From a virus: 64,000 nucleotides of DNA. The notes under the pieces are model-generated. The model saw nothing but the letters and a program-made list of their open reading frames with translations. It made no database searches and was not told where the DNA came from. Each line of letters starts with the position of its first letter. Positions within the stretch are counted from its first letter, which is position 1. The stretch spans positions 1-64,000 of IMG/VR virus record IMGVR_UViG_3300042862_000198; one strand, given 5' to 3'. Shown here piece after piece: positions 7,545 through 24,193 of this stretch. Both the position numbers and the translations under genes were made by a program.

Positions 7545-8579
7545 ATGTCAATTATAAAACAGCCAAGTGCTAAAAAAAGTAATACTAATATTATTTTTGA
7601 ATATCTTGAAAAGTTTCCTAATGCACCCTCTAAAACTTTAGCTAGAAAAGTATATTCTGAACAATCTGCATTTTTTGAAACATTTGAACATGCTTATAGT
7701 AGAATAAGATATTATCGTGGACAAAAAGGTTCACACTTAAGAAAAAAATTAAGTAATAAAAACTCTAAATATATACAAGAATTAAAATCTACATTTATGT
7801 CAAATAAATTACAGTTACCTGAATCACATACAAAAGTAAGAAATTCATTTACATTTCCTACAGGATGTAAAAAACTAGGAGTATTTGGAGATGTTCATAT
7901 ACCTTATCATGATAATACTGCTTTAGAAGTAATGTTTAAAAAGTTTGAAGAAGAAAAAGTAGACTCTATATTTATTAATGGAGACTTATTAGACTTTTAC
8001 CAACTATCTTTTCATGAGAAAGATCCAAGAGAAGTTCATTTTAAGGGTGAGATAGAAGCAGGAAAAGAATTTCTTGCATATATCAGAAACAGATTCCCGG
8101 ATATTCCTATTTACTACATTACAGGTAACCATGAAAATAGATTTGAAAGATACTTAAGAATAAAAGCATCTGAACTATTAGACATAGATGAATGTAGACT
8201 AGATGTAATACTACATGTTGCAGAATACAGAATAGAATACTTACCATTCAGAAGTAAAGTAGTATTTGGAGATTATACTATTGAGCACGGTGATAAAATA
8301 CCAGGTGCTGGTGGTGTAGTACCTGCTAGAACACTTCTAATGAGACTTAAGTCTAATTCCATAGTAAATCACTTCCATAAGTCTAGTGAGAGTTCTCAGA
8401 GAGTTTTTGGAGTAGGAGAACCTACAAATATTAGAGCCTATAGTTTAGGTTGTATGTGTGACTTAGCTCCGGAATACATGGAAATCAATGAATGGAATCA
8501 TGGTTTCTGTATAATGAGTAAGATTAAAGACAAAGTATCAGTATCTAATTATAAAATAGAAGGTAATACAATAATTTAA
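7545..8579 (+). CDS. calcineurin-like metallophosphoesterase with N-terminal extension
   Basis: GDVHIP, GDLLD, GNHE, HGD, NHFH motifs. Confidence 0.85.
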   Translation: MSIIKQPSAKKSNTNIIFEYLEKFPNAPSKTLARKVYSEQSAFFETFEHAYSRIRYYRGQKGSHLRKKLSNKNSKYIQELKSTFMSNKLQLPESHTKVRNSFTFPTGCKKLGVFGDVHIPYHDNTALEVMFKKFEEEKVDSIFINGDLLDFYQLSFHEKDPREVHFKGEIEAGKEFLAYIRNRFPDIPIYYITGNHENRFERYLRIKASELLDIDECRLDVILHVAEYRIEYLPFRSKVVFGDYTIEHGDKIPGAGGVVPARTLLMRLKSNSIVNHFHKSSESSQRVFGVGEPTNIRAYSLGCMCDLAPEYMEINEWNHGFCIMSKIKDKVSVSNYKIEGNTII

Positions 8580-21696: not shown

Positions 21697-22028
21697 AGTT
21701 CATCAAGATTAGCAATATTTAACTCAAAATTTGCTTGATTTAATAATGATTGATTTTTATCAATCAACTTATTAATCTTATAATCATTAAGTTTTAATGC
21801 AAGACTTAATTTAAAATCTTCAAGTTTTGTATAACAATAAAAATTATCTTTTTTTGTATTAAAACAACCTTCAATTCTATATCCATTTCTTGTTTGCATT
21901 ATACAAATTTCATTGTACTCTTTTTCTAAACTTGTTGCATCTGCAGATGATAGTTTACAATTTAATTTTACAAGGATATTATATCCTAATTGGGAATACC
22001 CAAATTTTAATTGGTGGTTCATAATCAT
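21693..22028 (-). CDS. hypothetical protein
   Basis: 111 aa. Confidence 0.6.
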   Translation of the reverse strand: MIMNHQLKFGYSQLGYNILVKLNCKLSSADATSLEKEYNEICIMQTRNGYRIEGCFNTKKDNFYCYTKLEDFKLSLALKLNDYKINKLIDKNQSLLNQANFELNIANLDEL

Positions 22029-22088
22029 ATTTTTTATAAGTAATAAGTATAAGCAGTTTCACCATCCCACTGCTAAGGTCAATTAATT

Positions 22089-22307
22089 TTACAAATCTTC
22101 ATTGTACTCAAAATCTCCGGAATCTATATATTCCAGAATCTCTTCCTTGTAAGCATAGTCAACAGTATAACCTATAAACTTTTTATCACCTTCTGTAATT
22201 ATAGTAAGTTCATCAAAGTTTATTCTATATGTATCTCTACCATCTACATCCTTTTGAAATACTATGGTACCTGTAATCAGATACCATAGAAATATTAATG
22301 TATTCAT
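22089..22307 (-). CDS. hypothetical protein
   Basis: DYAYKEEILEYI. Confidence 0.65.
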   Translation of the reverse strand: MNTLIFLWYLITGTIVFQKDVDGRDTYRINFDELTIITEGDKKFIGYTVDYAYKEEILEYIDSGDFEYNEDL

Positions 22308-22474
22308 TATGCAGAAACTAATTTCTCTGCAATGTAAGATTCTCTCAACATAACAATTGTTTGTATGTCTAGCTCATAAAGTGCATCTATGTATTCCTGA
22401 GTTAAGAATACATTTTGTTTCTGTGCTGATGTTACTAACTTAGTAATCTCAGTAATCATAAATTGTGTAATCAT
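22307..22474 (-). CDS. hypothetical protein
   Basis: Start MITQFM; the longer ORF-track version crosses a terminator. Confidence 0.55.
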   Translation of the reverse strand: MITQFMITEITKLVTSAQKQNVFLTQEYIDALYELDIQTIVMLRESYIAEKLVSA

Positions 22475-22499
22475 ATATATAAATTTTAATTGGTTACAG

Positions 22500-22532
22500 T
22501 ATAAAAAGAGGAGTAATCTTATTACTCCCCTT
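22500..22532 (-). terminator. intrinsic terminator
   Basis: AGGGGAGTAAT-loop-ATTACTCCTCT TTTT. Confidence 0.75.
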
Positions 22533-23013
22533 AAGTTTAATGCTAATAACTTTCTACCCATGAACCTCTAAGCATCACCTGTTCATATGCACCAATAAGG
22601 ACTACAATCATTAGTTCATGTATCTTATGTTATTGGATTTCAAGGTCTTTCAACCTATATGTATGATAATAAGTATCATATACTTGCATTGACTCATCAC
22701 CACTTATGCTATGGTATCCCTCTGTACTCAGTTGTAATACACATACATTGTTACCTTTACACTACCTACAAGTCTATGGACTTTTTAATATGAAGGTTCA
22801 GTAAGAATACCCATAACAGGATTTCCATTAACAAGCATAAAATGCATAGTGGTTTCCACAAATCATTAGCTAAATGATTGAAGTGTTAGCATACCAGACA
22901 TAACTATACCACCTCGGAGTTAATTAAACTCTGTATGGATTTATAACTACAACTGTAGTCTTATGCCTATGTATTACAATTGCCTGACCTTGGGAATCAG
23001 GAATGGTACATTA
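22500..23013 (-). ncRNA. candidate large structured ncRNA with twister-like ribozyme core
   Basis: No credible ORF, many hairpins, twister core motifs at 22981-23013 and 22717-22731, ends at a terminator. Confidence 0.6.
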
Positions 23014-23014
23014 A

Positions 23015-23242
23015 TTAATGAAAATCATTATAATCTTCAGGAGCATAATCTTCTTCAAGCATTTGCTCAATGAAGTTTTGTGCTATATCACCTTGTATTT
23101 CAAACTTAGGTTTTACAGGTGTAGCTATTACTCTTGCTTTATTATTAATAATAAGCTTAAGAGTATTTCTTAAATGTTGTATATCCATAGTATCAACATT
23201 AATCTTTTGACCATTTTTCATAGTCCAATAAACATTTTCCAT
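23015..23242 (-). CDS. hypothetical protein
   Basis: WTMKNGQKINVDTMDIQHLRNTL. Confidence 0.7.
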   Translation of the reverse strand: MENVYWTMKNGQKINVDTMDIQHLRNTLKLIINNKARVIATPVKPKFEIQGDIAQNFIEQMLEEDYAPEDYNDFH

Positions 23243-23513
23243 AAGTATAATTTTAAATTTTAAATATTCCGGAAATACTAACCTTGCTTTCCCTATAGAG
23301 AGAGAACCTAATAGTATATATAGTCAATACTAATGATTAGCTATATAAATATATATTATAAGGCTTTATTCCCAATCTGTTAACACACAAACTGCCAATA
23401 ATATGGTGATAGTTTATCACTTTATCACACTTTCACCCTCTTTCTCACTATTTTCAAAAATATAACTACTTGATTTACAGTATCAAAGTCACATTGTTAC
23501 ACAGGCTGGAGAC

Positions 23514-23600
23514 TTGCTACAAATAACAGATAATTATATCTTGCAAACAGTTTTTATAAAAACATTTGCTACAAATAACAGTGATTGTTACCTTGCAAAC
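23514..23600. repeat. two 35-bp direct repeats
   Basis: TTGCTACAAATAACAG-N10-CTTGCAAAC at 23514 and 23566. Confidence 0.85.
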
Positions 23601-23611
23601 CTTTTAGTATA

Positions 23612-24193
23612 AAGCTGTATTAAGACTGCCGTAGGCTTTTTAAACAAAACACACCCAATTAAGGGTGTGCTTGTGTGGTTTGTTATACAGTAAGACCTGC
23701 AAACAAGTGTGCAAAATCTGCTTTGGTAGCAATCTCTGCACTACTGCCGTTTAATACAGTCAACCAAACTGTATCACCGTCCAACTGCATTTCAACAGTA
23801 TATGTGTCACCTACTGTAACACCATTTTGGAAGCTCTTCTCCCAAATTTTGGCAAAGTATGTCTTGCCTGAAACCTCAACTGTACAAGTTCTAAACATTG
23901 TACCATTGCTATTAGACTTAACTAAATTAGCAACACTTTTCAGGATACCCTGAACTTTAACATTTTCCATTAGTTTATTTTTTTAATGAATTAATAATAA
24001 TTATCCCTAACAGTCCTAAGTTGTATCTAAGGCTGCCGCAGGCTTATGTAAAAAAAGGGGAATAAACCCCTTAATAATATAAGTATACTACTGAACTGAA
24101 CCGTATAAACCCTGCTTTAAATGTGGATAGGACAACCACTTTACCTTAATATCCTTAATAGTCTGAAGCTGTATCTAAAGCTGCCGCAGGCTT
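23612..24193 (-). repeat. three promoter-like boxes
   Basis: AAGCCT(G/A)CGGCAG..TTA(G)ATACA at 23612-23638, 24002-24045, 24150-24193. Confidence 0.8.
23683..23970 (-). CDS. small beta-rich (OB-fold-like) protein
   Basis: 95 aa; box upstream, terminator at 23645-23672 downstream. Confidence 0.7.
   Translation of the reverse strand: MENVKVQGILKSVANLVKSNSNGTMFRTCTVEVSGKTYFAKIWEKSFQNGVTVGDTYTVEMQLDGDTVWLTVLNGSSAEIATKADFAHLFAGLTV

Follow-up and report, generated by a model that had tools for sequence, protein, structure and literature searches.

Twister ribozymes, as described in PMC5408937, are assembled from the stems P1, P2 and P4, the optional stems P0, P3 and P5, and the two pseudoknots T1 and T2. 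The review places a conserved A after the scissile bond, gives a 4-bp P2 an adjoining A-G pair of the sheared type, and attributes T2 to a conserved GC dinucleotide in L2. It also reports that deletion of P1 leaves the activity at the wild-type level, and that about 20% of the members lack P3. Twister-sister, by the same account, displays twister-like stems without pseudoknots and is cleaved on the opposite strand. The role of the bacterial and phage twisters is presented as still open (PMC5408937, PMC6765202).

The element analyzed here lies in the window, i.e., the whole stretch of 64,000 nucleotides under study, which constitutes the initial 64 kb of a virus record of 122,176 bases with a completeness rating of 100%. 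The terminase and portal of the window match PHROG families, and the source virus is a tailed phage. Among 50,697 phage records, the terminase has its nearest relatives, at about 25% identity, in the crAss-like phages of Bacteroides and Flavobacterium, in agreement with the crAss-like affiliation implied by the original prediction. The DNA runs that contain the stretch are labelled lake or fresh water. Genes run leftward on the minus strand from 23242, and the ribozyme unit is positioned between the first small gene (23015-23242) and the next one (ATG 22474). Neither the 75-aa product of the former, P0001, nor the 55-aa product of the latter matched a PHROG family. The features of the region are collected in Table 1.

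Table 1. Positions of the features of the ribozyme unit and its flanks, numbered along the window.
Feature	Position	Strand	Remarks
Conserved leader box	23243-23300	-	Just upstream of the 75-aa gene; contains TTTCCGGAA at 23267-23275
75-aa gene P0001	23015-23242	-	Stop codon 23017-23015; one base separates it from U23013, the last uncut base
Twister 5' half	22983-23015	-	CM R1 64.8 bits at 22916-23025; columns invariant or covarying in A1 and A3
P1, 5' strand	A23015, U23014	-	Pairs with A22717, U22716
Proposed cleavage site	U23013/A23012	-	A23011 next
P2	23010-23007 with 22726-22723	-	UGUA with UACA, 4 bp
T2 (predicted)	23006-23005 with 22989-22988	-	CC with GG, 2-bp pseudoknot
Junction AUU	between T2 CC and P4	-	Stands where P3 would be
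P4	23001-22997 with 22987-22983	-	CCUGA with UCAGG; P4/L4 hairpin is 23001-22983
L4	22996-22988	-	UUCCCAAGG; holds T1 CCC and T2 GG
T1 (predicted)	22994-22992 with 22720-22718	-	CCC with GGG, pseudoknot
P5 arm with module X	22729-22982	-	Closing stem 22982-22963/22748-22729; interior 22962-22749, 214 nt, hairpin-rich
Twister 3' half	22716-22728	-	AG 22728-22727, UACA, GA 22722-22721, GGG, AU; CM 24.8 bits at 22705-22842
P1, 3' strand	A22717, U22716	-	P1 is 2 bp
Module A	22643-22715	-	Starts exactly at the ribozyme's last base; 26 distinct homologues
Module A, first stem	22715-22711 with 22703-22699	-	ACCAU with GUGGU, 5 bp; loop AGCAUAA (7 nt)
Module A, loop to 3' pairing	loop GCAU with 22689-22686	-	GCAU with AUGC; possible H-type pseudoknot
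Module A, hairpin H2	22680-22662	-	Predicted
Module A, hairpin H3	22656-22643	-	Predicted; GAAA loop
Module B	22533-22642	-	94-96% identical in L036 and L208, same terminator in each
Module B, stem	22636-22592	-	CCAAUAA with UUAUUGG, variable interior; interior differs in L036
Module B, hairpin	22586-22560	-	AUGAAC...GUUCAU; kept in L036
Intrinsic terminator	22503-22532	-	12-bp stem, 3-nt loop, T-run
Downstream gene, 55 aa	22307-22474	-	From ATG 22474; starts about 28 nt past the terminator's T-run

The twister core and its phage family

All core elements of a type-P1 twister are present at 23015-22716 on the minus strand. The order of the elements, P1, U/A site, P2, L2 dinucleotide, P4/L4, P5, P2', T1 strand and P1', is that of the type-P1 twister (RF03160; Roth et al. 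2014 as reviewed in PMC5408937), in which two pseudoknots emanate from L4, as is predicted for the phage RNA. P1, P2 and P4 stand in the canonical order, the T1 strands are in place, and the conserved A after the scissile bond, common to both, is preceded by a U. A 4-bp P2 with a neighbouring A and G that could form the sheared pair is likewise common to both; the candidate letters, A23011 and G22722, are present in the window and invariant in alignment A1, which concerns the letters only. The short junction that replaces P3 in the phage family corresponds to that of the ~20% of twisters mentioned above (PMC5408937).

The letters and coordinates quoted in the original prediction were all found in the sequence, and the coordinates were recomputed. 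Its placement of the element directly after the stop codon of the gene is correct, and P2 exists as proposed, with four base pairs (UGUA/UACA) instead of the three assigned to it. The strands of the CCC/GGG pseudoknot were located at 22994-22992/22720-22718, and the CC and GG invoked in place of the usual GC/GC pseudoknot are present and, wobble changes aside, kept family-wide. The two reservations attached to the prediction, a P1 of about 2 bp and an L4 one nucleotide longer than usual, both hold.

The window copy agrees with the consensus at all core positions. In a nested thermodynamic model, the pair probabilities are ~0.97 for P4 and ~0.55 for P2. The 526-nt stretch folds with a z of -2.59 (1 of 100 shuffles folds as well). 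Single core 9-mers are not rare in the window, where 13-40 of 100 shuffles give as many matches, and the significance of the element therefore comes from its family and not from the window alone. A search of the genome revealed no second copy of the ribozyme, blastn of the region returned no match among the 50,697 phage records, and ARAGORN detected no tRNA. The window copy was not reported by CM R1, a model built from family members, in the 69-source run; with filters off, the model breaks it up into two partial hits, as the insert is longer than the span that the model allows.

The 19-nt P4/L4 word is present in 62 viral contigs. In almost all of them the preceding 12 nt read TAATGYACCATT, with unrelated sequence further upstream, and the 3' half CTGAGTRCAGAGG (at most one mismatch) follows P4 at a distance of 21-252 nt in 59 of the 62 stretches. 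The remaining three comprise two copies cut by the end of the locus and one decayed copy. CM R1 yielded 94 matches in 69 sources, and two further scans for changed T1 strands brought the CM total to 113 matches in 94 sources. Two alignments were examined, A1 with 33 family members and A3 with the 113 matches (107 distinct rows).

The U-A-A at the cleavage site is invariant in 33/33 sequences of A1. A P2 pair is C-G in 21 of these sequences, U-A in 12 and unpaired in none, and the four P1 pairs each carry several pair types. Across the 107 distinct rows of A3, 95.4% of the pair cells are paired, as compared with 83.1% after shuffling and 30-40% after sliding of the partner. Double changes are seen in 22 of the 27 pairs. 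The paired cells amount to 77.6% in P1, 99.0% in P2 and 99.6% in P4, and double changes were found in 4/4, 1/4 and 5/5 of their pairs, respectively. P4 occurs as CCUGA/UCAGG, CUCAC/GUGAG, UCUAC/GUAGA, CCGGU/ACCGG and others. T1 covaries as well (CCC/GGG, CAC/GUG, CCA/UGG), its variants having been selected by the 3' strand only and both T1 and T2 lying outside the CM. In A3, T1 pair 35/375 is C-G in 87 rows, A-U in 14 and other in 2, and pair 36/374 is C-G in 80, A-U in 19 and other in 4, with 6 unpaired cells in all; T1 is broken in some copies, e.g., L102 and L107:4577. T2 pairing is possible in 98% of the A3 cells, with C-to-U wobble changes as the only variation of CC/GG (CG:85, UG:12). 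The covariation among homologues called for by the original prediction is thus found, and with P1, P2, P4, P5 and T1 all covarying across the family, its proposal of a twister-type ribozyme with a large insert at P5 holds. Judged by these alignments, the window element is no chance look-alike.

A scan of 185,579 species genomes returned 20 pattern stretches, where ~17 were expected by chance according to our estimate. R1 gave 8 matches in 6 of these stretches, all of them MAG contigs; no R1-confirmed copy was found in an isolate genome of this set, and Rfam found no twister there. The variant twister family looks phage-borne, since only 6 MAG contigs and no isolate carry it among the 185,579 species genomes.

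Several arrangements were observed around other family members. Two copies at L045:7255-7520 and 7885-8180, with P4 CUCAC/GUGAG, bear an insertion of ~170 nt inside L4, 5' of the CCCAAGG word; L4 of the L045 copies is a second insertion site besides P5, and three copies lie there in tandem within 1.3 kb. At L043:1122-1190, ~430 nt upstream of a variant twister on the same phage contig, lies a pistol ribozyme (RF02679) with a score of 42.8 bits, which exceeds the gathering score. Back-to-back twisters, in which a 3' half abuts the next TAATG, occur at L012:9400-9440 and in a contig of run X16 at window positions 22971-23013; pieces excised between such twisters would carry a 5'-OH and a cyclic phosphate. 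tRNA genes are found 1-3.5 kb from ribozyme copies at L023:6392-6465, L034:8419-8492, L016:6886-6959 and L032:1992-2065.

The P5 arm and the downstream modules

The closing stem of the P5 arm is pairable at 18 of 20 positions, with mismatches at A22980 x C22731, the third P5 pair, and at G22967 x A22744. It contains the 17-bp stem originally proposed to join the two ribozyme halves, over which pair probabilities are 0.68-0.95 in 16 of the 17 positions and 0 at G22967/A22744. The large insertion and the distance between the halves likewise agree with the proposal, as the insert comprises 214 nt and the halves are 252 nt apart. The inserts are hypervariable between otherwise identical cores, and the P5 arms of the family reach 252 nt; the window copy and its near-identical relative (L002/L039) have the longest arm among 49 distinct copies bearing the 19-mer.

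The interior of the arm, module X, is 93-98% identical in L002, L234, L239 and L021, and partially present in L232. A 16-mer scan had marked 14 stretches, mostly chance by estimate, of which BLAST kept L234, L239, L021 and L232. In L234, X is accompanied by the twister 3' half with loss of the 5' half, and in L239 by a broken P4. In L021, X has no surrounding twister core and is found directly 5' of another, intact twister. Because X persists where the twister core has decayed (L234, L239) or is absent (L021), the ribozyme is dispensable for keeping it, and module X is, by its distribution, a unit of its own. The copies differ in loops or by whole hairpins that are replaced or flipped, such as CC-loop-GG to CUAC-loop-GUAG and AAUCAUU/AAUGAUU to AAUGA/UCAUU; this pattern suggests a conserved structure, for which the sequences are too few for statistics.

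Inside X, GUUAUAAAUCCAUACAGAGUUU (22926-22947, minus strand) resembles a twister 3' half without the GGG of T1. Every copy of X retains it, even the free-standing one in L021, and it could act as an inactive alternative pairing partner of the true 5' half. We considered whether X is a fusion of two tandem twisters, composed of this decoy 3' half (22947-22926) and a 5'-half-like segment at 22831-22817, and rejected it, as 22831-22817 is not kept in L021.

Module A follows the ribozyme. A scan with a 16-letter word retrieved 52 stretches with 39 distinct cores, and the 26 that show a further conserved AAUGC were taken as homologues; they are 70-98% identical. The module encompasses ~75-90 nt (window; L094:10903-11010, L099:5742-5849, L117:8932-9039; ~20 more loci), with a core of ~28 nt that is nearly invariant, spacer included. 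The second pair of its stem (9/23) is G-C in 13, C-G in 10 and A-U in 2 copies and broken in none. The GCAU of the loop can pair with the downstream AUGC in a pseudoknot; this pairing is invariant, with one of its strands fixed by the search word. The two covarying hairpins vary widely in sequence, and both fold in ~21 of 25 single-sequence predictions, as counted from the folds. Because the hairpins are misaligned by MAFFT in alignment A4, RNAalifold recovers no stem but the first from it. A twister 3' half lies at most 100 nt upstream in 15 of the 26 copies, or 17 of 26 when two with a U in P2, recognized by eye, are counted.

Module A was searched against Rfam at E<=10 without a match except a spurious snoRNA. 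According to PMC6546385, the coremin motif requires two hairpins, one of 3 bp with a YGAD loop and one of 4 bp, separated by a conserved 10-nt spacer. Module A and the coremin/xrRNA elements of plant viruses (PMC6546385) are both small hairpin-plus-spacer elements near an RNA 5' end; identity with coremin was rejected, as module A displays instead a 5-bp stem, the loop AGCAUAA, a 9-nt GAUGAAACA-like spacer and the putative loop-to-3' pseudoknot. A pistol ribozyme was discarded too: RF02679 found no match at E<=10 on 22300-23300, and the same model finds the true pistol in L043.

For module B, a 15-mer scan gave 74 stretches, mostly chance by estimate, and BLAST kept only those in L036 and L208. 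The crossing CAUGAAC/GUUCAUG pairing drawn here by the original prediction is not supported by L036, which lacks the first CAUGAAC, yet keeps the local hairpin (AUGAAC, 15 nt, GUUCAU). The terminator expected at the end of the unit is present, with its 12 pairs and T-run at 22532-22506, ~510 nt downstream of the ribozyme start. Of the structured non-coding RNA of ~500 nt that had been predicted, the terminator-closed unit stands and the single co-evolving fold does not: since X, A and B occur separately in other phages, the downstream RNA is a string of modules.

Transcripts, predicted processing and rival readings

The leader box motif has one match in the window, and 4 of 100 shuffles show any match. 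The box also occurs in L002, L036, L064 and L065, and may represent an early promoter or leader. It comprises ~50 nt, contains TTTCCGGAATATTTAAAA and lies ahead of either the 75-aa gene or, among the relatives, the twister itself; in L036 and L064 the twister begins within ~12 nt after the leader box, with no 75-aa gene between. A second recurring box, AAGGRTTGCAACCTTGTGAGAGTA, contains a palindromic hairpin and lies a few bases upstream of many twister copies (L021:40-66, L027, L037, L040, L045:6903-6930). In the majority of copies a hairpin of some kind is found immediately 5' of the cut site; it may correspond to the optional P0 or protect the 3' end of the upstream fragment.

The DNA runs X1 and X2 contain all sampled words of 22450-23300. 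Six RNA-labelled runs contain 27-50% of the sampled words, and four of these were examined as assembled contigs, which show neither strand, ends nor level, and come from libraries in which DNA may be present. X20 has a single 464-nt contig wholly within 22530-22992, and the contigs of X15, X16 and X17 encompass 22542-22715, 22740-22992, 22530-22692, 22716-22985 and 22754-22983. Those of X15 and X20, from two studies, stop at 22992 without a loose end and miss the predicted 5' end by 20 nt, which hints weakly at a discrete RNA with an end near the ribozyme. In X17 and X20 no contig falls on the flanking genes; cover is sparse at 21800-22530 and hardly any at 23014-23800, and this is not evidence of absence.

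We consider it probable that the early transcript is cut two bases past the stop codon of the small gene by a working variant twister, which heads a ~510-nt, terminator-capped non-coding RNA composed of X, A and B. The leftward early transcript would start upstream of the 75-aa gene. Once the P5 arm is fully transcribed, its closing stem would join the ribozyme halves, P2, P4 and the pseudoknots T1 and T2 would form, and self-cleavage would take place between U23013 and A23012. The cut would leave a small mRNA that ends two bases past its stop codon with a 2',3'-cyclic phosphate. The freed RNA would bear a 5'-hydroxyl and run to the terminator, with the ribozyme and X in its P5 arm placed first, then module A, then module B and the terminator. 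The most likely role of the cut would be to give the mRNA and a stable structured RNA independent fates. Speaking against a working ribozyme are the 2-bp P1, the A x C mismatch at the third P5 pair, the silence of Rfam, the wobble-only variation of T2, and an X15 contig (record 3) that spans the cut site in a variant carrying an insert of 84 letters and could be uncut RNA or DNA carry-over.

More tentatively, the ribozyme may be a processing head for RNA cargo, exchanged at its borders, with X and A as new classes of functional RNA. Module A, for instance, could block nucleases as a cap, act as a decoy for a host factor, or be a further motif for catalysis or ligand binding.

A possible alternative, compatible with cleavage, is that the invariant ribozyme halves are homology points for swapping RNA or gene cassettes and that cutting is secondary. 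Three runs show loose contig ends at 22715/22716, and one shows such an end at 23013, where the contig abuts the 3' half of another twister; relatives therefore differ exactly at the ribozyme borders, which speaks for such exchange. The order is leader box, twister and module A in L064 and leader box, gene, twister and module A in the window; relatives of P0001, present in 6 viral contigs, have the twister upstream of the gene and not downstream as in the window; and the hypervariable P5 inserts between otherwise identical cores fit the same pattern. Homology points, however, need no covarying pseudoknots, and the compensatory changes in P1, P2, P4 and T1 indicate selection on the fold.

It is unlikely that the element is a dead relic, i.e., the leftovers of one or two neighbouring twisters split by X, in which nothing is cut and only the modules matter. 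The consensus letter at every core position distinguishes the window copy from the decayed ones, which are common in the family (e.g., L010:1978, L028:5979 and the GAGAG types), and its closing stem pairs at 18/20 positions. Its 2-bp P1 would fit a relic, but P1 is dispensable according to PMC5408937. More in keeping with decay are the A x C mismatch in P5, the RNA-library contig bridging the site in a variant, and the retention of X at 93-96% identity where the core has decayed or is missing (L234, L239, L021).

Least probable of all is a cis-acting leader or attenuator, in which A and B would respond to a ligand or factor and thereby govern terminator read-through into the genes from 22474, while the ribozyme would only trim the 5' end: the terminator ends ~28 nt before the next ATG, module B and its terminator stand just before a gene in L036 too, and the near-invariance of the ~28-nt core of A is frequent in ligand-binding RNAs, but A and B are also encountered separately and in numerous further contexts, an alternative anti-terminator pairing was not detected, and no Rfam riboswitch matched 22300-23300 at E<=10.

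Comparison with known RNAs

A working variant twister being the preferred reading, its relation to the catalogued families has to be addressed. At gathering score, Rfam had 0 matches in the window, and at E<=10 it had chance-level matches only on 22300-23300. The Rfam twister models RF03160, RF03154 and RF02684 matched neither the window, nor a 91-nt short-insert copy, nor 11 loci at E<=10, and a search of 5 records with RF03160 revealed no twister. The family is therefore without a curated Rfam twister match. Twister-sister was rejected, since T1 covaries and RF02681 matched neither the window nor the 91-nt copy. In the literature we found no printed description of a twister variant with a CC/GG T2, and supplements such as that of Roth et al. 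2014 might list such sequences.

A comparison of the phage family with the twister of PMC5408937 reveals several differences. The predicted T2 is CC/GG in the former, whereas T2 is formed by the conserved GC in the latter, i.e., one pair is flipped. The phage L4 is one nucleotide longer, and the pair that closes P4 is not a fixed G-C. P1 is short, with 2 bp in the window, and P5 is long and hypervariable, with up to 252 nt. The family is filed as a twister variant because the architecture matches, the catalogue models fail, and T2, L4, P1 and P5 differ; by the sequence tests on P1, P2, P4, T1 and the cleavage site it behaves as a variant of the type-P1 twister, and the element is a candidate catalyst.

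Engineered twister switches (PMC5052635) resemble the phage RNAs in that both carry a foreign folded domain on a twister stem. Those constructs were designed with grafted aptamers, whereas the phage inserts are natural, reach ~250 nt and have no known ligand. The family offers one invariant core with dozens of different natural inserts up to ~250 nt, and a natural, abundant system for asking what bacterial and phage twisters do. The module borders lie at the ribozyme ends, often followed by a conserved RNA of putative pseudoknot type, module A, and the assemblies of lake metatranscriptomes already include the region. The catalogue models miss a whole twister branch with a flipped T2 pair, which matters for ribozyme censuses and for the insertion tolerance of the scaffold.

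GOLLD and ROOL are large, structured, phage-associated 'ornate' non-coding RNAs of several hundred nucleotides. The RNA described here is similarly a structured RNA of several hundred nucleotides in a phage genome. It differs from both in having no Rfam match to them and in its build, that of a probable ribozyme-headed mosaic of shuffling modules.
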